64,000 nt of DNA from Mobula hypostoma. Taxonomy: Eukaryota. Every line of letters starts with the position of its first letter. Positions within the stretch are counted from its first letter, which is position 1. The notes beneath the pieces were generated by a model, which was not told where the DNA came from, did not search any database, and worked only from the letters and a program-made list of their open reading frames with translations. The position numbers were made by a program, and so were the translations under genes. The DNA is taken from NCBI RefSeq assembly GCF_963921235.1, contig NC_086099.1, positions 77,066,001 through 77,130,000 of the forward strand, written 5' to 3'. Of the stretch, positions 5,487-49,250 are shown piece after piece.

Positions 5487-7934
5487 CAACACACATCAAA
5501 ATTGCTGGTGAACGCAGCAGGCCAGGCAGCATCTGTAGCATCCTGGGTCCTCAGAGGCTCCATCTTCTTCTCATCCCAACTCTCCCCTCTCCACTGACAC
5601 CCCCAGCCTCCTCCCTCCCTCCTCTGATCCCAGCTCTCAAGATTCCAGCCTTGAACTCCAGGCCGGGTCTTTATGTGCTGCTGTTGTGACTCCCGTCTCC
5701 CCTTCCCCCACCACTACTCCGCAGCCCCATCTTCCTCAGATCCCACCGTCAACTCCTGGGCCCTCAGAGGCTCCATCTTCCTCTCACCCCAACCCTCCCC
5801 TCTCCACTGACACCCCCAGCCTCCCCCTCCCCCCTCTGATCCCAGCTCTCATCCGTGCCGGGTCTTTACCATCCCCTCCGACCTTCAACTGTCGGAGGCA
5901 GAACGCTCTGTTCTCAGTAAGGGCCTCACGTTTGTCCCCCTTCGCCCACACCTCAGCAAGTTCCGTGTTCGCCATGATGCGGAACTTTTCTTCCGCCATC
6001 TCCGTCTCCGAGCCTACTTCTTCGGCAAGGACTCTTCCAACCCCACCGATGACCCCCTTCTCCCATCTTCAACCCTCCTCTTCTTCATGGACACCCCGCT
6101 CTGGTCTTCTGCCTGCTCTGGATCCCTTTATCGCTAATTGCCGACGGGACATCAACCGTCTCGACTTCACCGCACCTTGTCCCCATTCCAACCTCACTCC
6201 TTCGGAACGCTCTGCTCTCCACTCCCTCCGCACTAATCCTAACCTTATTATTAAACCCGCCGATAAGGGGGGTGCTGTTGTAGTCTGGCGCACTGACCTC
6301 TACCTTGCCGAGGCACAGCGACAACTCACGGATACCTCCTCTTATTTACCCCTCGATCGTGACCCCACTAAGGAGCACCAGGCCATTGTCTCCAACACCA
6401 TCACCGACTTTATCCGCTCAGGGGATCTCCCATCCACTGCTACCAACCTTATAGTTCCCACGCCCAGCACTTCCCGTTTCTACCTCCTACCCAAGATCCA
6501 CAAACCTGCCTGTCCTGGCCGACCTATTGTCTCAGCTTGCTCCTGCCCCACCGAACTCGTTTCTGCATACCTCGACACAGTTTTATCACCCCTTGTTCAA
6601 TCCCTTCCTACCTATGTTCGTGACACTTCTCACGCTCTTAAACTTTTCGATGATTTTAAGTTCCCTGGCCCCCACCGCTTTATTTTCACCATGGATGTCC
6701 AGTCCTTATATACTTCCATCCCCCATCAGGAAGGTCTCAAAGCTCTACGCTTCTTTTTGGATTCCAGACCTAATCAGTTCCCCTCTACCACCACTCTGCT
6801 CCGTCTAGCGGAATTAGTTCTTAATCTTAATAATTTCTCGTTTGGCTCCTCCCACTTCCTCCAAACTAAAGGTGTAGCTATGGGCACCCGTATGGGTCCT
6901 AGCTATGCCTGCCTTTTTGTTGGGTTTGTGGAACAATCTATGTTCCGTGCCTATTCTGGTATCTGTCCCCCACTTTTCCTTCGCTACATCGACGACTGCA
7001 TTGGCGCTGCTTCCTGCACGCATGCAGAACTCGTTGACTTTATTAACTTTGCCTCCAACTTTCACCCTGCCTTCAAGTTTACCTGGTCCATTTCCGACAC
7101 CTCCCTCCCCTTTCTAGATCTTTCTGTCTCTGTCTCTGGAGACAGCTTATCCACTGATGTCTACTATAAGCCTACTGACTCTCACAGCTATCTGGACTAT
7201 TCCTCTTCTCACCCTGTCTCTTGCAAAAGCGCCATCCCCTTCTCGCAATTCCTCCTTCTCCACCGCATCTGCTCTCAAGATGAGGCTTTTCATTCTAGGA
7301 CAAGGGAGATGTCTTCCTTTTTTAAAAAAAGGGGCTTCCCTTCCTCCACTATCAACTCTGCTCTTCAACGCATCTCCCCCATTTCACATACATCTGCTCT
7401 CACTCCATCCTCCCGCCACCCCACTAGGAATAGGGTTCCCCTGGTCCTCACCTACCACCCCACCAACCTCCGGGTCCAACATATTATTCTCCGTAACTTC
7501 CGCCACCTCCAACGGGATCCCACCACTAAGCACATCTTTCCCTCCCCGCCTCTCTCTGCATTCCGCAGGGATCGCTCCCTACACAACTCCCTTGTCCATT
7601 CGTCCCCCCCATCCCTCCCCACTGATCTCCCTCCTGGCACTTATCCGTGTAAGCAGAACAAGTGCTACACATGCCCTTACACTTCCTCCCTTACCACCAT
7701 TCAGGGCCCCAAACAGTCCTTCCAGGTGAGGCAACACTTCACCTGTGAGTCGACTGGGGTGATATACTGCGTCCGGTGCTCCCGATGTGGCCTTTAATAT
7801 ATAGGCGAGACCCGACGCAGACTGGGAGTCCGCTTTGCTGAACATCTACGCTCTGTCCACCAGAGAAAGCAGGATCTCCCAGTGGCCACACATTTTAATT
7901 CCACATCCCATTCCCATTCTGACATGTCTATCCA
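5487..7934 (+). mobile_element. Penelope-like retroelement (Neptune-type), 3'-truncated, with inverted pLTR piece at the 5' end
   Basis: RT plus GIY-YIG ORF. 5487-5537 is the reverse complement of the PLE 3' terminus, and 5538-5640 duplicates 5752-5850. Confidence 0.92.
5860..7934 (+). pseudogene. PLE reverse transcriptase / GIY-YIG endonuclease polyprotein (one frameshift, one stop, truncated)
   Basis: N-terminal LSEAERSVLSKGLTFVP in an alternative frame (shift at the C-run ~6053), then IIKPADKGGAVVV, FYLLPKIHK, GRPIVS, MDVQSLYTSIP, GVAMGTRMGPSYA, LRYIDD, linker CKQNKCYTC, and GVIYCVRCSRCGL*YIGET...RFAEH. Confidence 0.92.
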
Positions 7935-29918: not shown

Positions 29919-30111
29919 GACATATAAAATTTCACCTTTCAGAAAAATGAGAAGGGGATGGTATTATTTTTTTTACTTCAAAACGTTAAATTAATTCAAA
30001 GGAAGTCATGGGGAGTCTGAAATACAGGTGTAAGTTAACCTTTACTTTAAGCGTGGCTTGCACGAATCATGTCGTAACGTGATGATGTATGCAGTTAACG
30101 TTTTTTACATA

Positions 30112-30670
30112 TGTAACCCTCAGGTTCAGCTAGTGGCTTAATCTGGGGGAGACAGCCTCCGGCCCGGCCAAACTTGAGAAATTTTGTCTGGGTGGATGCT
30201 GTGTGATGTGTTCCCCTGTTACAAATCAGTACCATGAAATAACAAACAGTACACAATGTGCAATTAAACGATTGACCTTTATAATACTTAATTTAACTAT
30301 AGGGTTAGTAAAGAAACAAAAAAAAAGAAAAAGGGCCCATTCTCATGAAATAATCTATTTCGTAACGTTGGAGCTCACGATTTTCCCATCAGTTCGCTTT
30401 CCCTCGATTTTCTCCCCGGCTGTTGATTCTCGACCCCATTCCAAGTCCACTCTCTCCTGCAGTCTACGATTTCCCCGTTCTGGCATCTTCTCTCTCCATC
30501 TTCCACCAAACAAAAGACGGCAAAACCTTCACTTAGGCGCACAAGAGAGGAAACATCTTCCCTCATTGGCCAGCGCATATTCCAAAATCCCCATTATCTC
30601 CAGTTATAACCCAAACACTGCAGCTGCAGGGAAACCATAACATTAGCATGAAACATTACAGCACATTACA
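30112..30670. mobile_element. Solo LTR inserted in the 3' LTR of the Gypsy element
   Basis: TGTAA...TTACA termini, and a 4-bp TSD CATA at 30108-30111 and 30671-30674. Removing it restores alignment to the 5' LTR. Confidence 0.85.
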
Positions 30671-31256
30671 CATATAACCCATAATTATTTATTTAAAGGA
30701 ACAAGAATGCTTAATCAATAAAAATATATATGCAAGATTACTCAAATTTTATTGAAATATTAAATACACAACACTCCTTTTTGGTTAGCTATAAACTTCA
30801 AATCAATAGAGAATGCATCTCAACTATGTACACAGCTTACTATACAAATACAGATATCCACAGCATCGTGAATTTTAAATTCTCCCATACGGGTATAAAC
30901 ATTTAATTACTGTGTGTGACTTCTTAAACTTGTGGGATAATGACTTTCCTCACAAGTGGAATGACTCTGCTTGGCAGGTGAGATATGTGTCTGTGAAATA
31001 ATCTCAAGTCTGGGGCCTCTATGTAGTGGTTGTAGGAGTTGACACTGAAAATGCAGTAACCACCTTTGTTCTTCTAGCTTGTGCATCTTAACCTTGGGAA
31101 GGTGTGTTTAGTTCACTGGAGTATTCTCTTATTGATCTCTCTATTGCTCTCTTTGCAATTCCATTTTTCCTTATGGTTTCCTCCTCCACATCATCCGATG
31201 AATCCTGTGCTTTCATATCTGCATTGACTCTGTTCATTCAGCTGCGCTTTGGCATC

Positions 31257-31586
31257 TACGAAGGGTGATTGATAAGTTCGTGGCCTAAGGCAGAAGGAGT
31301 CAATTTTAGAAAACCTAGCACATTTATTTTTCCTACATTACATTTAGTTCAGCGGTCATGGAGCACACAGATCCCTTTTTTGTAGAAGTCAGCGTCTTGG
31401 ACCTCCAGAAGTGGTCCACAGCAGGGGTGATTGCTAAGTTTGTGGCCTAAAGTAGAAGCAGATGAGGAGAAACTTCAAACTTTCTGCATTTTCATTCAAA
31501 GAGTTGAACTGCACGTGCATGTAATGAGAGCTGTATAACTCATCTCCTTCTACCGTAGGCCATGAACTTATCAATCACCCCTCGTA
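31257..31586. mobile_element. Mariner MITE (three-TIR form of the 8641-9169 family)
   Basis: TA-flanked, with the same TIR and internal sequence as 8641-8985. Confidence 0.9.
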
Positions 31587-31675
31587 TGTCTACTTTCACA
31601 AGCAGCTTTTTATCTCCCACTTGAAGCTCATGCAATAACCCTAATGCACGCAGAGTGGATTCTGGTTCTTTATAC

Positions 31676-32907
31676 CAGCGGCCCCAACCACCGGGCTGCG
31701 GACCGGTACCGAGCCGCAAAGCATGTGCTACTGGGCCGCGAGGAAACAATATGATTTGGCTATATGAGTCAGCTGCACCTTTCCTCATTCTCTGTCATGC
31801 ACTGTTGAGCCTGAACGCACGCGAGGTCATTACACACGCGTCATCCATGTCAACGCGGGAAGATCAACTCCTCGAGTTTGCAAATGATGGTGGGCTGAAA
31901 AATATGTTTGACATAACATCTCTGCCGGCATTGTGGATCAAAGTTAAGGCTGAATATCCTGAGATAGCCACGAAAGCACTGAAAACGTTGCTTCCATTTC
32001 CAACATCATATCTCTGCAATGAATGCAACAAAAACCAAATTGCGGAATAGACCGGACATAAGGAACCCCTTTCGAGTATTGCTGTCTCCCATCAACCCTC
32101 GATGGCACCGTCGTGTTGCAGGGAAACAAGTCCAGGGCTCCCACTGATTCAGTGATACTGGTGTGTGGCAATGATTTTATATGTTCATACGGGAAAAATA
32201 TGTGCTGTGTGTTTAATATCCAAACGTTACTTAAAATGTTATGATGCTATTGACTTATAAGTGACTTATATAACCATATAATAATTACAGCATGGAAACA
32301 GGCCATCCCTGCCCTTCTAGTCCGTGCCGAACGCTACTTTCACCTAGTCCCACCGATCTGCACTCAGCCCATAACCCTCCATTCCTTTCCTGTCCATATA
32401 CCTATCCAATTTTTTTTTAAGTGATAATATCGAACCTGCCTTTACCACTTCTACTGGAAGTTCGTTCAACACTTACTTCCAGCTCTCCTGTCCTCCCCTG
32501 ATAATTGACTTATCACTATATTCATGTGAGGAAAATATGCGCTGTGTGTTTAATATTAAATTTGTTAGATAAACACTTTTAGAAACAAAATTGTGTGTAT
32601 TAGCCAGTTATCACCTATATTCCGGTCGTGATTAACACCCCCTCCCCATACAGAATCGCCAAAAACCATTTGTAGAAAAAGATCGGCACGTACACACATG
32701 TGCAGGTCACACATGCACACTGGTGCTCGCGCAAGGCTTCATGATCATTGTAGTCTTTATGGGGTAAACACAACGTATTTGACTGCTACTCTTGTCCGTT
32801 GGCAACCCTACCACCGCGTCCCCCCCCCCACCCCCGGGTCGGCCAGTCTGCAAGAATATTGTCAATAATAAACGGGTCCACGTTGCGAAAAAGGTTGGGG
32901 ACCCCTG
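31676..32907 (+). mobile_element. hAT (Charlie/MER1-like) DNA transposon, internally deleted, containing a CR1 tail (~32270-32472)
   Basis: 8-bp TSD CTTTATAC (31668-31675, 32908-32915), TIR CAG(C/G)GG(T)CCCCAACC, and hAT dimerisation domain EDQLLEFANDGGLK..WIKVKAEYPEIATKALKTLLPFPTSYLC. Confidence 0.92.
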
Positions 32908-35900
32908 CTTTATACTCACAAATGCTGAATGCTTGAAAATTTCCTGAAGCTTGTTGAACTCTCTTCCAGCTTAAAACCAAGCTGCATTTTGCAAGTAACT
33001 GCCTGATGACATTTCAGAAGCTTTGTCAAATATGCTGCCTGCGAAAAATGTAGTTGGACCACTGCTTTCATCACTTTCAAACTTCTGAGCAGCGTTGTCC
33101 TTCCTTGGTTCAACATGCTTTCCAATCAGAGGCACAGATGTTGGTACCAACACCTGTTTGTCCTCTGTGTGGTAATGGTTCACTGTGTTTGGCATGAAGA
33201 CAGTTGTGGCATCATCAAGTACCTTTCTTAATTTACTTCCAGTTGTCTTCATTGTAGATGTTATGGCATGCAAATGTGGATGGATCTCCAATCAAGTTGT
33301 AGCTGTCTCAGCCAATCATGCCCTGATGATGCTGATCCTCCTGTTTTCACTCCATACAAGCATAATGATGCATGTTGAATGTTGGATTTCAGTGTTATGA
33401 ATGTCAATCCCACAAGAGTTATCTCTTGTCTGGTAGTTCTTAGTTGAATATCTCCAGGTTTCAATTTAATATCTTTGAAATGCCATTCAAGCTCATTTTG
33501 TGGAATGACTGAAACAGCAGAACTAGTGTCCAATTGCATTTTAATTAATTTGCTGTTCACTTCTGGTCTAAACCATAGTGCTTGTCTATTGCTAATTTTC
33601 ACACTGTAAATTTCAAAGCTGTTCAGCTCTGTGTCAATCTCATTATTAGATTTCTCACTGACAGCAGGCAAATTAATGCTCTTTTTGAAACTGAAACTTG
33701 ACTTTTTTGCTTTTTATCTTCTCTGTGCAGTCCATTTATTTTTTGTCTGCCCAACATGCTCTTTGTATGTGAAATACTTTGTTGAATTTTCTGCAAGATT
33801 CACTTTTAAATCTGCATTTGTTTTGATGTATTTCAGCCCCTGCCATAACGGTAACACAATTTGCTCACCAGGCTGTTTTCTGTTTAAACAATGCAATTTT
33901 GTTCACATTCACTTTCATTCCTGACAGCAACTCAATTGTGTCTTTCCGCAGTTTTTGTCGAAACAGTGATTTCCACTGCTCATTTGAATGTAAACTGTGC
34001 TTCAGTTAGGAGCCATTTTTGAATGCTCGCCTTAAGATTCTACAAACTAAATGATCTCTTTGTGCATCATTAAGGCCATCACTGAACTGGCAATGCTCAG
34101 ACAATCCCTTCAATTCAGCCACATCCGCTGAAACGGATTCTCCCTCCTTTTGATTCTGCTTTTGAAACCTAAAGCATTCTGAACTTAACAATGGCTTTGG
34201 TTTTAAGTTCTCCTGCATCACTTTTACAATAGCAGCAAAGCTAATATCTGATGCTTTGGTTGGAGCAGTCAAACTTTGAAGCAAACTATATGCCTTTGGA
34301 CCAAATGCATTTTGCAAAATTGGCACTTACTTCTTACCGGCTATTTCATTTGCTTCAAGACAGTGTTCCAATAGTTCAGTATACATGAGCTGATAACCCA
34401 TTGTGTAATCATTCTCGTCAATTATTCTGAGGTAGTCAGCCATTTCTGCACTGTTTTAATAATTATTATCACCTGGTACTCACTCTTTATGAATACTGAA
34501 TTCTTCCATTTATGGCCTCTTTACTCGATGTCTCTGCATGTGTTACTCTGTTTTGCCGTTCTGCGCAGTGTCTCTTTTTGATAGGTCGGTAGCCATGCCG
34601 GATTTGTTTTCAAAATACCTCATCACCGAAGTTATGTTTTGTAATTTCAAAACATTAAATTAATTCAAAGGATGACATGGGAAGTCCAAAATATAGGTGT
34701 AACTTTGTCTTTACTTCAAGCGAGGCAGGCACGTATCATGTGGTAGCATAATAACGTATGCAATCAATGTATTTTACATATAACCCATTATTAATTACTG
34801 TATTTAAATGAACAAGAATGCTTAATCAAGAAATATATATACATGATTATTCAGCATAAGAATTTACCTTGTGAAACATTCAAATCCAAAGGTCATCAAT
34901 GAGAGGCAATTATCACAAAATCAATTAGGGATTTTTAGAGAAAAAAAATTCTTTGCTGAGTATGTTTGGAACACACCACTGTAGAAAGTGGTTGAAATGA
35001 AACAATATGGAGGGATTTAAGAGGAGGCTAGATATGTAAGTGAGGGTGAACTGAGATGGATGGAAATGTGGATAGGGTTAGAAATAATGTGATGAAGTAG
35101 TTTGACTGAACTGTGAACATGAGCTTAGAATAGTTGGATATTTTTTGCTAATTCTATACCAGGTTTGTTTTATTCCAAATTACCTTTAGAAATATTAGCT
35201 TATTATTAGCCTATTTCTTCAGCAACATCTGTTGCTGTAATGGAGGCATTCATTTCTTAGTAGATTAATAGCTTCATTAAACAAGAAAATATTATATCAA
35301 CACACCACAAATCATTGTACTTGAATAGAACACCTAATTTTCTGTTACTAAATGTTTGAATAATTTTGTTTGGAAAAGACAAGTAAAGTACTTGCATATA
35401 TTAAATTACAAAAAAGCATTCACATTTGTAAATTCTGTAATGTTCATGGAAATCACCTTGAGGAGATTTTTAAAGTTTAGTAAATAATATATGGGTTAAT
35501 TAGAAGAATAGAATAACTCTGAGAATTGACATAGATTCCATGGGCCAGAATATTTCATTTGATGTTGTGAGAAATATGCATTAAGGGGACAACCAAACTC
35601 CAACATGATTGAAGTGGCTTTGGTGGCAGCTGGGGTAGGAAAAAAAAACATATGCCTTGAAGTTAGATCACACCAATTTTTGCTGCACTAAATTAAAGCT
35701 GTGTTTAGCATAAATAACCAATGAGGTTCCTTACAAAAATCAGAATTGCAAAAATTAGTTAAAAGCAATTGATATGATTTTCAGATGGTTTACGCACAGC
35801 AAGCCTGGTATGAGACTTGGATAGTTCCTAACTGGACCTCAAACAAATTTGCCTGTACCCTTACATTTCACAATGCAGTCTTCAAAAGCTGCATCCCCAT

Positions 35901-43212: not shown

Positions 43213-46104
43213 TGTCATGGTCCGGTCTGTGAAGTCCGTATTCCGGTTCACAGTCCAGTCCATCGACCCTTGCTCCAGGTTTTCCTGTCTACCCTGTTTC
43301 TGTCTTGTTGAGATCTAATTGAGTCAGCTGATGCTCGTAGGGGCTGGCTGCATAAATACCTTCAGAGACCAGGGTGTGGCTGCTGGATTGTTCTTATCCT
43401 TACTCCTTGTATCCCTTCCTCTGCCTTCTGTTTCCTCACCTGAAGCCCTGCCTTGTCTTGCCGGTAACTCTTGCCTCAACTCAAGTGTCCTGCCTCCAGC
43501 CTTCAGCCCAGCCTCGCCTCAAGTCTCCAGCCTCCAGCCCAGTCTCGCCTCAAGTCTCCTGCCTCCAGCCTCCAGCCCAGCCTCACCTCAAGTCTCCTGC
43601 CTCCAGCCTCCAGCCCAGCCTCACCACAAGTCTCCTGCCTCTAGCCTCCAGCCCAGCCTCACCTCAAGTCTCCTGCCTCCAGCCTCCAGCCCAGCCTCGC
43701 CTCAAGTCTCCAGCCTCCAGCCCAGCCTCACATCGTCTCCAGCCTCCAGCCCAGTCTCACCTCAAGTCTCCTGGCTCCAGCCTCCAGCCCAGCCTCACCT
43801 CAAGTCTCCTGCCTCCAGCCTCCAGCCCAGCCTCACCTCAAGTCTCCTGCCTCTAGCCTCCAGCCCAGCCTCACCTCATCTCCTGCCTCCAGCCTCCAGC
43901 CCAGGCTCACCTCAAGTCTCCTGCCTCCAGCCTCCAGCCCAGCCTCACCTCAAGTCTCCTGCCTCCAGCCTCCAGCCTAGTCTTGCCTCAAGTCTCCTGC
44001 CTCCAGCCTCGCCTCACCTCAAGTCTCCTGCCTCTAGCCTCCAGCCCAGCCTCACCTTGTCTCCTGCCTCCAGCCTCCAGCCCAGCCTCACCTCAACTCT
44101 CCTGCCTCCAGCCTCCAGCCCAGCCTCACCTCGTCTCCAGCCTCCAGCCCAGCCTCACCTCAAGTCTCCTGCCTCTAGCCTCCAGCCCAGCCTCACCTTA
44201 TCTTCTGCCTCCAGCCTCCAGCCCAGCCTCACAAGTCTCCTGCCTCCAGCCTCCAGCCCAGCCTCACCTCAAGTCTCCTGCCTCCAGCCTCCAGCCCAGC
44301 CTCACCTCAAGTCTCCTGCCTCTAGCCTCCAGCCCAGCCTCACCTCAAGTCTCCTGCTTCCAGCCTCCAGCCCCCTCTCACCTCAAGTCTCCTGCCTCCA
44401 GCCTCCAGCCCAGCCTCACCTCGTCTCCAGCCTCCAGCCCAGCCTCACCTCAAGTCTCCCGCCTCTAGCCTCCAGCCCAGCCTCACCTCGTCTCCTGCCT
44501 CCAGCCTCCAGCCCAGCCTCACTTCGTCTCCTGCCTCTAGCCTCCAGCCCAGCCTCACCTCATCTCCTGCCTCCAGCCTCCAGCCCAGTCTCGCCTCAAG
44601 TCTCCTGCCTCCAGCCCAGCCTTGCCTCAAGTCTCCTGCCTCCAGCCTAGCCTCACCTCAAGTCTCCTGCCTCTAGCCTCCAGCCCAGCCTCACCTCATC
44701 TCCTGCCTCCAGCCCAGTCTCGCCTCAAGTCTCCTGCCTCCAGCCTCCAGCCCAGCCTCACCTCGTCTCCTGCCTCCAGCCTCCAGCCCAGCCTCACCTC
44801 AAGTCTCCTGCCTCTAGCCTCCAGCCCAGCCTCACCTCGTCTCCTACCTCCAGCCTCCAGCCCAGCCTCACCTCAAGTCTCCTGCCTCTAGCCTCCAGCC
44901 CAGCCTCACCTCATCTCCTGCCTCCAGCCTCCAGCCCAGTCTCACCTCAAGTCTCCTGCCTCCAGCCTCCAGCCCAGCCTTGCCTCAAGTCTCCTGCCTC
45001 CAGCCTCCAGCCTAGCCTCACCTCAAGTCTCCTGCCTCTAGCCTCCAGCCCAGCCTCACCTCATTTCCTGCCTCCAGCCCAGTCTCGCCTCAAGTCTCCT
45101 GCCTCCAGCCTCCAGCCCAGCCTCACCTGAAGTCTCCTGCCTCCAGCCTCCAGCCCAGCCTCACCTCGTCTCCTGCCTCCAGCCTCCAGCCCAGCCTCAC
45201 CTCAAGTCTCCTGCCTCCAGCCTCCAGCCCAGCCTCACCTCAAGTCTCCTGCCTCCAGCCTCCAGCCCAGCCTTGCCTCAAGTCTCCTGCCTTTAGCATC
45301 CAGCCCAGCCTCACCTCATCTCCTGCCTCCAGCCCAGCCTCGCTTCAAGTCTCCTGCCTCCAGCCTCCAACCCAGCCTCACCTCAAGTCTCCTGCCTCCA
45401 GCCCAGCCTTGTCTCAAGTCTCCTGCCTCCAGCCTCCAGCCCAGCCTCACCTCAAGTCTCCTGCCTCCAGCCTCGCCTCATGTCTCCTTCCTCCAGCCTC
45501 CAGCCTCGCCTCACCTCAAGACTCCAGTCTCCTGCCTAGCCTCAAACCTGAAGACTCCATCTTCTAGCCTCTAGCCTCTTGCCTAGCCAAGCCAAGTCTC
45601 TAGCCTCTAGCCTCAAGCCTGAAGACTCCAGCTTCGTCCTGTCTGCCTGCCAAGCCTCGTCCTTGCCAGGTTCTGGGGTCCGAGCCAGAGGCAAGACCCA
45701 GGTACTGGGTCCTTGTCCAGTCTCTGGCTCGAAGTCCGTCCTGCCTCCTGCCAAGCCTTGCCTCTAGCCTCAAGGTTCAAGCCTGAAGACTCCAGCCTCC
45801 TGCCTCCTGCCAACTCTCGCCTCTAGCCTCAGGCCTGAAGATTCCAGCCTCTTCCTGCCTGCCTGCCAAGCCTCGTCCTTGCCAGGTTCTGGGGTCTGAG
45901 CCAGAGGCAAGACCCAGGTACTGGGTCCTTGTCCAATCTCTGGGAGACCAATCCCAGGCTCCTAGCTCTTTTGTCCAGTCCTGGTCCAGGTTCCTGGTTT
46001 TCGTGTCCATGTCCTTGCCATCAGCCTGAATCCTAGTCCTGTCCCTAGTACTTCAGTGTCTGTGTCTTTCACTTGGGTCCGTTCCCAGCTACCACCTTAT
46101 GACA
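43213..46104 (+). mobile_element. Solo LTR (2.9 kb) containing a large internal minisatellite
   Basis: TGTCAT...ATGACA termini, 5-bp TSD TTTGA (43208-43212, 46105-46109), TATA-like CATAAATA at ~43351, and an internal direct duplication 45545-45760/45780-45940. Confidence 0.8.
43485..45545. repeat. ~2-kb C-rich minisatellite (variable ~30-40 bp unit CTCACCTCAAGTCTCCTGCCTCCAGCCTCCAGCCCAGC)
   Basis: Direct tandem repeats are visible, built from CCAGCCT/CCAGC sub-repeats. Confidence 0.97.
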
Positions 46105-46614
46105 TTTGACTGATTTCCTCCCAAGGACAATATCCTTTCCTAACTACAGTTTATACCTTTCAAATCAGAAACAAATATATATTCTGGGGAATTATGTTAA
46201 TTTTTTGGTTACCCTGGGTCTTCAAAATACATACCTTAGTGTTTTATTACATCCGAAGCTGTCAAAGATGAGAAAGAGTAGAACACACTAGCCAGTGAAG
46301 TATAGAATTTCATTCAGGCACTTTACATTCAATACTCGTAGTTCTAGATGAACACCTCAGGACTAATTTTTAACCACATGGAAAATAGTTCTGATTTGAA
46401 GATAATTAACCAAGATTTATAAATTGCAGGATTTAATATCCTGGAATTAATTTAAAGGGTTAAGTATTCTGAACTGGAAAAATGTTGCAAAGGTCTCAAG
46501 GTACATTTAATAACAGAGTATGTCTACAGGATACAAACTGAAATTTGTTCACAAAACAAAGAAACCCCATAATACATTAAAAGCATCAAAGCCAAAATGA
46601 TCCCCTCCCTTTGC

Positions 46615-47500
46615 ACAAGCAGCAGCAGAAGCATTGACCACCCTCCCCCCTCACCCCCAGCTGCACCAGCAGAAGTCCTGGAACCCACCCACATGGCCCA
46701 CCATCCAAGCACCAGCAGAAGCCCTGGAACCCACCCACATGGCCCACCATACAAGCAGCAGTAGCAGCCCTGGAACCCACCCACATGGCCCGCCATACAA
46801 ACAGCGGAAGCCCTGGACCCAGCCACACGGCCCGCCATACAAGCAGCAGCAGAAGCCCTGGAACCCAGCCACACGGCCCACCATACAAGCAGCAGCAGAA
46901 GCCCTGGAACCCAGCCACACGGCCCACCATACAAGCAGCAGAAGCCCTGGACCCAGCCACACGGCCCGCCATACAAGCAGCAGAAGCCCTGGAACCCAGC
47001 CACACGGCCCGCCATACAAGCAGCAGAAGCCCTGGAACCCAGCCACACGGCCCGCCATACAAGCAGCAGAAGCCCTGGAACCCAGCCACACGGCCCGCCA
47101 TACAAGCAGCAGAAGCCCTGGAACCCAGCCACACGGCCCGCCATACAAGCAGCAGAAGCCCTGGAACCCAGCCACACGGCCCGCCATACAAGCAGCAGAA
47201 GCCCGGGAATCCAGCCACACGGCCCGCCATACAAGCAGCAGAAGCCCTGGAACCCAGCCACACGGCCCGCCATACAAGCAGCAGAAGCCCTGGAACCCAG
47301 CCACACGGCCCGCCATACAAGCAGCAGAAGCCCTGGAACCCAGCCACACGGCCCGCCATACAAGCAGCAGAAGCCCTGGACCCAGCCACACGGCCCACCA
47401 TACAAGCAGCAGCAGAAGCCCTGGACCCAGCCACACAGCCCACCATACAAGCAGCAGAAGCCCTGGAACCCAGCCACACGGCCCACCATACAAGCAGCAG
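46615..47500. repeat. 43-bp minisatellite, ~20 copies (GGCCCGCCATACAAGCAGCAGAAGCCCTGGAACCCAGCCACAC)
   Basis: Near-identical tandem units that are more diverged at the left edge. The unit has no stop codon in any frame. Confidence 0.97.
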
Positions 47501-49250
47501 CGGAAGCACCATAGATCCATTGATCCAGAGTCCATCCAAATTAATATCCCTCTTCCAAAAATGGCTGGGTGGAATTGAACAAAACAGAACAAGACGTGCA
47601 TATTTGTTATGAGTATCAAGATTGTTCAGAAAGATGACAGGAAGATGAAACCTGTTTAGACTGAGCACTAGAATTTTCAAAGAAGGATAACCAAAGTAGA
47701 AGAGGGGAAGATGGAAATCAATGTTAATGTCACTTTGATGACATTATAAACGGAAACACTATTACCATGAAAGTTACATTATCTGAGTATTTCTGTAGAA
47801 TTGCAGGCAAGTGAATGAATCCATAGTAATAAGAGTATAATATTTAAACTTGGAAGAAAACATGTTATGTGGCTTGTTATTCTTTAATGAGATATGAGTG
47901 TTGTGGGCAAAGCTGGCATTTATTGCCAAACCCAAATTGTCCTTGAACTGAGTCGCTCCTGAGTGCATTCCAGAGAGCAATCTTAATTCTGTCATCACGA
48001 ATACATCGAACAAAGTAATGATGACAGACTTACATCCTTGAACAGTGTTGGTAACCCAGATGAACTTTTAAAATAAACTAGTTTTACAGTTACTACTACT
48101 GTTATTTATACACTTTCTTTTAAAATCTAGGTTTATTTATTTAACTTACTCCGCATTTATGAGTGTAAAATAAAACTTAATATCCACAAATTCTTGAAGT
48201 TTTTCTAGCAAGTAACTTTGCCAGAGAAATGTAGATTATACATTTATTCTAGAATAGTATACAATTAGTTCCAGAATAGTTTTAAAGGGAAACAAAAACA
48301 TGAATACAGGACAAGTAGAACAGAAGTCTGTGCATTTTATTACCTCACTGTCTTGCTCATCGTCTAAAACTGATGAAATATTCTTGCTGAAGATAGTGCT
48401 ACTGAAAAAGGGCGAGGATTTACTGGTGGTTCATAAAGCAAAAAATACAATTAACTACTTTATTAATAACAGTTTTGCTGTGGAAAATTGTGGTAAATGA
48501 TCACTGCAAACAATGAAGAGGTAATTGAAAGTGAGGCTAACTTGAGTGTTGAGGTGCACAGGTGCGATGCAAGGTAGGAACAAGGTTGAGGTATGTTCGA
48601 GGTGAAGTAATCAGAGCAACGTTGAGACATGGTCAAGAGGGATTTGGGGCGTGCAAAAATGGAGAAAGGTCATGAGGTTTGATCGAGCTAAGTGCCGGGC
48701 CAATTTGGAAAGATTGGGTATGGATCAGATTGTGGGGGCAGGGTCCAGGCCCAGAGAGTATCGATGCAACCAGGCCGGCTCTTAGTGTAAGGGATGACCT
48801 GATGTTTTAATGATTTTAATGCCAGGCCAGATGGATTGAAAAGGCAAGGTGTTGGGACCAGAGGCAGATCAGGCTGGTTTAGCTCGCTGCTCCGTGACAT
48901 TTATTCTGCTCTCAGGCTAATGTTGTGACCTGCTCCAAGCTTCATGACTTCAAGCCCCATGACGATTTGCTCCACTGTGTGATGAACTGAGGCTGAGGGT
49001 GTGGACCTGCTCCAGCTGCTCCAGGCTTCATGTCTATGGACTCACTTTCATTCTGAATGCTGTTACTTGCTTTTATAGTTTGCATGATTTGTGTTTATTT
49101 TCTCTCTCTTTGTGCATTGGATGTTAGTTAGTTTTTTTAATGGATACTTTTGGTTTCTTGTTTTGTAGCTACCTGTAATGAGAAGAATCTCAAGGTTCTA
49201 TAATTTATATCTACTTTTACAATAAATGTACTTTGAACTTTGAAAATATG

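Follow-up and report, generated by a model that had tools for sequence, protein, structure and literature searches.

A stretch of 64,000 nt of Mobula hypostoma DNA (contig NC_086099.1, positions 77,066,001 to 77,130,000, hereafter the window) carries on its minus strand a decayed Gypsy long terminal repeat (LTR) retrotransposon in which a piece of the message of the host gene RBM25 stands in place of pol. The data suggest that spliced RBM25 mRNA was captured in an LTR-mediated process, that the chimera was amplified in trans and that its copies then decayed as neutral passengers. We put the probability of this reading at roughly 0.88. A preliminary description of the window had proposed the capture and on that point it holds. 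The single event that it described has become a large family, and it missed both an alternative exon within the cargo and the greater length of the original capture.

The element runs from about 34893 to 29962 in the order 5' LTR, primer-binding site (PBS), gag, protease, linker, RBM25 piece, pol tail, polypurine tract (PPT) and 3' LTR, which is the order previously claimed. The 5' LTR (34630..34893; minus strand, as for all parts of the element) can be aligned to the 3' LTR over about 255 nt, its outer end being decayed and its boundary approximate. The window LTR pair includes 145 nt ungapped at 80% identity, and the LTR of one relative copy is 242 nt long with TG...CA ends. A PBS-like motif follows directly (34618..34629), with similar sequence at the same position in 14 of 15 copies. 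The gag region (33714..34443) contains stops and frameshifts; its part 34009-34326 has 61 of 103 residues (59%, E 1e-41) identical to P0235, a Gypsy polyprotein of Scleropages. The decayed aspartic protease region (33264..33713) has 62 of 138 residues (45%, E 2e-34) identical to the Acipenser polyprotein P0236, the matching part of which hits RVP and gag-asp_proteas. In P0236 the protease is followed by reverse transcriptase (RT), RNase H and integrase, and the window element has none of the three, as had been noted before. The protease-RT linker (33212..33263) is common to pol-bearing copies, which run on into RT.

Beyond the RBM25 piece lie the pol C-terminal tail and 3' untranslated stretch of the parent (30783..31063), the PPT (30774..30782, AAAAAGGAG) immediately before the TG of the 3' LTR, and the 3' LTR itself (29962..30773), which is split by a 559-nt insertion at 30670-30112. 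This insertion is unrelated and solo-LTR-like, with TG...CA ends and a 4-bp duplication. The tail peptide has no significant match to a teleost relative, so the earlier assignment of a pol tail stands through DNA, which matches the pol-bearing copies L167 and L172 (195 exact parent-context hits). A Pfam scan of seven window frames, which are too decayed, gave no hits, and Rfam and tRNA scans found nothing.

The captured segment is RBM25, as had been proposed. All named matches among the best 120 are RBM25, the remainder being RNA recognition motif (RRM) proteins without a name, and RRM_1 scores above cut-off in three of four element copies scanned. A full-length RBM25 query returned element copies only, and the C-terminal part was needed to reach the host gene; it gave three matches, all on contig C1. 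A search by PWI family found SRRM1 and PRPF3 and did not find RBM25. Within 120 kb of C1 the host RBM25 is multi-exon with AG/GT exon ends. Against the spliced host message the window piece matches 259 of 306, 76 of 87 and 163 of 196 nt in three segments, and it crosses five exon-exon junctions (33201, 33153, 32989, 32931 and 31219), which confirms the predicted absence of introns.

In the window, RBM25 exons 4 and 5 and the start of exon 6, where the RRM begins, occupy 32908..33153; the middle of exon 6 is at 31589..31675 (the 76 of 87 nt), and the end of exon 6 with exon 7 is at 31064..31256 (the 163 of 196 nt, with junction 31219), running to a shortened 3' end that many copies share. Two later insertions, missing at these sites in other copies, separate the segments. 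The larger (31676..32907, no strand assigned) has terminal inverted repeats and an 8-bp target duplication, GTATAAAG, at 32915-32908 and 31675-31668; it is presumably hAT-like, and Pfam gave no hit for it. A 205-nt repeat nested in it (32472-32268) is 89-90% identical to pieces in L060 and L129. The smaller (31257..31586, likewise without strand) has 43-nt inverted repeats (91%) ending in TA, as read from the repeats and junctions, and we take it to be mariner-like.

The capture starts at 33211 and not at 33153 as first described. From there the window copy has the final 10 nt of exon 3, followed by a cassette exon of 48 nt that keeps the frame (33154..33201, 16 codons) and by exons 4-7. The peptide stretch beginning ATTVF, previously read as Gypsy linker, is the end of host exon 3 plus this cassette. 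In the host, the cassette lies within intron 3 (G000:C1:99832633-99832586, L103), where element copies match 44-50 nt; it is in frame, has its own ATG and is flanked by a pyrimidine tract and AG on one side and GT on the other. Because the cassette is inside the captured piece, the captured molecule appears to be an alternatively spliced RBM25 isoform. The cassette peptide is present in 3 of the 168 RBM25 proteins compared (P0121, P0237 and P0238), which are two RefSeq isoforms of the shark Heptranchias perlo and one Logan contig. A related RBM25 isoform has four extra residues ahead of exon 4. As the cassette is missing from the other 165 proteins, it could instead be element DNA that was exonised in the host intron. 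We regard this as scarcely credible, because none of 32 parent copies has the cassette at the junction, the host intron matches the element over 44-50 nt only and with AG/GT ends and a pyrimidine tract, the peptide is identical in H. perlo, and the Logan contig splices the cassette between exons 3 and 4.

Long copies of the element extend about 30 nt into exon 10, so that they cross 8 junctions between nine exons and lack 28,147 nt of introns. The original cargo was about 1.07 kb of RBM25, from the end of exon 3 to the start of exon 10, and its ends are constant across copies (5' at mRNA position 162, 3' at about 1235). Junctions are retained unevenly among 94 loci: cassette in 68, E4 in 87, E5 in 90, E6 in 89, E7 in 87, E8 in 22, E9 in 21 and E10 in 19. 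The window copy is a short form, a derivative of the longer capture.

Both switch points show microhomology with the parent family, as the preliminary description had led us to expect. At the 5' joint, comparison of 13 chimeric and 32 parent copies with the host places parent sequence before TGCCACA and host exon 3 after it, in frame; this 7-nt motif (33205..33211) belongs to both the parent linker and host exon 3. At the 3' joint the 9-nt sequence GAGAAGAAA is common to host exon 10 and the parent (two parent copies; 195 exact parent-context hits), and here the sequences read out of frame with the pol tail. Of 300,000 random joints between five parent copies and the mRNA, 0.075% have at least 7 nt of chance microhomology and 0.005% have at least 9 nt. 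Where the chimera turns to RBM25 at the 5' joint the parent goes on into RT, and the parent sequence that resumes at the 3' joint is the integrase tail, so pol is replaced and not interrupted.

The 5' switch is only 10 nt from a host splice junction, and read-through followed by splicing is the standard route for retroviral oncogene capture. By this route an element in RBM25 intron 2 or 3 would have spliced its own donor into a host exon, and a single 3' recombination would have completed the chimera. Several results make this very unlikely. Downstream of the shared 7-mer the chimera still reads as host exon 3, which puts the joint within that exon instead of at an acceptor; parent copies lack a GT donor with intron-like sequence at the exon boundary and continue in the pol frame; and no element copy was seen in the host introns, the only LTR-like matches being short and about 44 kb distant from the exons. 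LINEs (long interspersed nuclear elements) are abundant in the window, which could favour a LINE-made processed pseudogene in an already deleted element, or else a segmental duplication. Such origins are improbable in the extreme. The host piece is in sense orientation between two retained LTRs and has no poly(A), no 3' untranslated region and no duplication around it, there is microhomology at both ends, and in long copies the piece stops about 30 nt into exon 10. Segmental duplication is further opposed by flanks and target duplications that differ for each copy, and no pair of copies exceeds 90% identity. Intron loss, microhomology and the lack of poly(A) and duplication together uphold LTR-mediated capture over a LINE-made pseudogene, which is the choice made in the preliminary description.

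The parent family can be recognised in the same genome. All 30 RT-bearing loci found with a linker plus RT query match the window protease-linker DNA at 66-83%, and RBM25 is absent from all of them. Pol-bearing copies have their protease-linker, LTR and tail DNA in common with the chimera, and colinear matches to P0236 give the parent the Ty3/Gypsy order gag, protease, RT, RNase H, integrase. All parent-family copies seen are broken, and those pol-bearing copies that were examined hold later repeat insertions and no other captured cargo. The 30 most intact Gypsy loci were also considered as parent candidates and were rejected as members of different families. Other, better-preserved Gypsy families (L119-L148), some with more than 1,000 stop-free codons, are unrelated in DNA to the RBM25 element.

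We propose that the capture took place in the germ line of a cartilaginous fish ancestor, where spliced RBM25 mRNA containing the cassette exon may have been co-packaged by a Gypsy element. Its reverse transcriptase would have changed template twice at short shared sequences, just past the protease and near the end of pol, putting about 1.07 kb of RBM25 in the place of RT, RNase H and integrase. The product would have retained both LTRs, the PBS, the PPT and an open gag-protease-RBM25 frame, and it would have reached at least 1,400, probably about 2,500, places in the genome through copying in trans by the pol-bearing parent family. While this burst lasted, the purine-rich RE-repeat region could have lost further sequence, giving shorter forms that multiplied as well. 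The copies then decayed neutrally.

A genome-wide search with a 24-nt junction pattern (up to 3 mismatches) gave 1,407 chimera-type and 3,007 parent-type matches and 0 with reversed controls. The chimera is therefore amplified, which the preliminary description had left as a matter for a junction search, and by junction count it accounts for about one third of the family. With the 24-mer moved along by one base, 35 of 62 chimeric loci and none of 41 parent loci were matched; the figure of 1,407 is therefore a minimum, and a rough estimate is about 2,500 copies. An initial DNA search with either end of the RBM25 piece gave 2,207 and 1,417 candidates, 40 of each being scored. Eleven loci were left out of the copy counts given further on: 10 repeated a place already included, and in L083 part of the RBM25 piece is duplicated in tandem. 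At 53 of 58 other loci there is also a match of at least 30 nt to the upstream Gypsy part. Among 29 loci picked by protease-linker DNA alone, 16 have RBM25, 12 have pol and one has neither, with a query taken from a chimeric copy that may favour chimeras. The flanks differ for each copy, and perfect and differing 5-bp target duplications are present in three of seven copies with both ends. Many dispersed copies with their own target duplications and without RT or integrase are the features of a non-autonomous LTR family.

The family is not confined to this genome. Contigs that bridge the Gypsy-RBM25 joint were found in three other organisms, C (X9, record 25), D (X15, records 10 and 11) and F (X14, record 1, where the Gypsy side is limited to 33 nt), in a search that covered 4 of 20 listed runs, presumed to be RNA. 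These organisms hold only 6-15% of the words of a host intron stretch. Given this low sharing, joint contigs in all three indicate that the family predates their separation.

The copies are old. Of the 94 loci that match the RBM25 message, 88 cover more than 60% of a 619-nt core. These 88 are 86.7% identical to the host (82-90%) and 82.2% to one another, and none of 3,828 pairs exceeds 90%. Their tree is star-like, with 2 of 86 inner branches supported and end branches of about 0.1. LTR pairs give a Kimura two-parameter distance of 0.20 (0.14-0.26, n=6), in agreement with 0.10 per copy. This pattern is that of one old burst of copies. The only rate found, 7e-10 per generation (PMC10587355), cannot be turned into years without generation times.

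By length, 23 copies are long, 18 middle and 47 short. The full-length RBM25 query over-samples long forms, and an unbiased sample gave 2, 1 and 11. At cassette sites, chosen after the data had been seen, the host base is kept more often in long than in shortened copies (18/19 against 32/60, P 0.0008; 15/19 against 20/60, P about 0.001). This fits an order in which long forms would have preceded short ones.

We compared the copies with the host gene for signs of selection on the cargo, leaving out CpG sites and any position with the host base under 70%. The ratio of non-synonymous to synonymous private changes (N/S) is 1.05 for transitions and 0.87 for transversions, stops accumulate freely, and only 4 of 88 copies are without a frameshift. 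Decay after insertion is neutral. Differences carried by most copies are 22 synonymous and 5 non-synonymous, as expected under constraint on the host gene since the capture; the comparison was made without outgroup DNA, so these changes could lie on the host or the element side. Of the changes found in 15-50% of copies, 10 are non-synonymous and 3 synonymous, close to the neutral 2.8:1. Because private changes are neutral and those at 15-50% nearly so, the RBM25 piece is most likely a passenger. Among these 88 of about 1,400-2,500 copies we saw no domesticated retrogene with an open frame under purifying selection: N/S is about 1 and the best copy is 90% identical to the host.

The same capture could have been followed by amplification driven by a Gag-protease-RBM25 fusion useful to the element, in RNA binding, splicing control, export or packaging in cis. 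The 5' joint is in frame, and in several copies an open frame spans it (226 aa in L014). Among differences at a frequency of 30% or more, no shared non-CpG amino-acid change was seen in the RRM core, and shared synonymous differences are slightly in excess. All this is in keeping with a useful fusion. A second family joined in frame to SUDS3 at the same linker also fits. Against a useful fusion stand the neutral private changes and the near-neutral changes at 15-50%. The RE-rich half was deleted repeatedly, and short forms predominate, with 11 of the 14 copies that were classified in the unbiased sample; the chimera, at about a third of the family, has not taken it over. An in-frame join may also be favoured merely for keeping gag-protease translated. 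On balance we think a useful fusion unlikely.

The SUDS3 family was met in the same genome, where the Sds3 profile matches 119 of 150 scored places. At all six loci inspected (L209-L214) the gag-protease of a related but different Gypsy family runs into SUDS3 at the same linker, and the join is in frame in the five loci where it is readable in one frame. The six loci have no DNA match to the window element or its LTR. RBM25 and SUDS3 together suggest that these genomes recurrently amplify captured mRNA on a mass scale. It is conceivable, if rather doubtful, that in-frame capture of host mRNAs at the protease-RT linker happened repeatedly in Gypsy elements of these fishes and that the cargo, which the element's polyprotein would release or display, aided their spread. 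The RBM25 RRM would then act in the germ line, either on the element's RNA or by serving as a decoy of the host splicing factor. If true, this would resemble an oncogene-transducing retrovirus, but one that is inherited and amplified a thousandfold.

Several observations weigh against capture with trans amplification and passenger decay as set out above. No intact parent was seen, which leaves mobilisation in trans as an inference. Five pol-bearing copies (L158, L160, L170, L174, L184) have lost internal sequence from the zinc-finger region of the integrase up to the purine-rich site that the RBM25 3' joint also uses; this site may be a recombination hot spot, with the joint possibly reached in more than one step, and alternatively the five copies are possibly an amplified deletion subfamily. 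Four of the seven two-ended copies lack a perfect target duplication (one has 4 of 5 positions, three have none readable), and none is readable for the window copy. The copy sample is biased to well-preserved, best-scoring copies. The length classes form no clades in the tree, the bootstrap of which had not settled (for short forms, 223 of 500 shuffles were as low), so the deletions may be recurrent or recombined. Finally, there are 19 clear synonymous differences between host and family in comparison with 12.5 private synonymous changes per copy, a marginal excess (P 0.05-0.15) that would allow for some time during which the element's protein was constrained.

Acutely transforming retroviruses, in which gag-fused host sequence replaces pol, depend on helpers and are somatic, infectious and selected for their cargo. 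The RBM25 element is alike in its gag-fused host sequence in place of pol, but no somatic, infectious or cargo-selected character was seen in it. The Gypsy polyproteins of Metynnis (P0233), Scleropages (P0235) and Acipenser (P0236), which are 44-53% identical to the gag-protease of one copy, have an autonomous layout without cargo: a single gag-pol frame with two zinc knuckles, protease, RT, RNase H and integrase. There is a close likeness to the LTR-mediated retrocopies of animals. In that study (Tan et al., 2016; PMC5131818), partial spliced mRNA replaces internal open reading frames with a median microsimilarity of 6 bp at the joints, poly(A) and duplication are absent, both LTRs are kept and secondary retroposition, as a non-autonomous element, is reported at few sites. 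The RBM25 element shares the intron loss, the replaced internal frames, the joint microhomology, the absence of poly(A) and duplication and the two LTRs, but it differs in having at least 1,407 copies, great age, an alternative exon and serial internal deletions. Maize Bs1, as far as the same source covers it (PMC5131818), also holds host exons in an LTR element with switch points uniform across copies; in contrast to the single donor, more than 1,000 copies and neutral decay of the RBM25 family, it has 1-5 copies per species and three donor genes and is reported as functional. The crocodilian CrocERV29 (KIT-ligand) and CrocERV31 (nectin3) are likewise germ-line LTR elements with a captured host mRNA, and they multiplied and are common to several species, according to PMC4299795. 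They are retroviruses with 9 and 6 copies and with cargo beside or in place of env, for which purifying selection is reported, whereas the RBM25 element is a Gypsy element with pol replaced and no selection found.

Literature searches, including RBM25 with retrotransposon and RBM25 with processed pseudogene, found no description of the RBM25 element family among the entries listed; repeat databases (Repbase/Dfam) and bioRxiv supplements, outside the search, may contain it. The main texts of the Greenland shark and whale shark genome papers mention RBM25 0 times. The mechanism is already known. What sets the family apart is a copy number two to three orders of magnitude higher, the alternative-exon cargo, the serial shortening and the absence of any sign of function. 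The published captures considered have one to nine copies, in comparison with at least 1,407 for the RBM25 chimera from a single event. Here host coding sequence, roughly 0.6-1 kb times thousands, has turned into bulk repeat, which offers a large natural sample for asking whether captured cargo helps a retroelement and many presence/absence markers for ray and shark phylogeny. An old splice isoform has also been preserved, and its cassette exon was evidently expressed where the element was active, probably in the germ line. Additionally, what looks like a retrogene or an expansion of 'RBM25-like' genes in such genomes may consist of copies of a repeat.

Two further features of the window are separate from the element. 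Long GC-rich tandem repeat arrays at 43319-47743 give spurious open frames on both strands. On the plus strand, 5539-7797 is a 752-codon open frame with RT-like motifs and a Cys-rich C-terminal end, which we presume to be Penelope-like.

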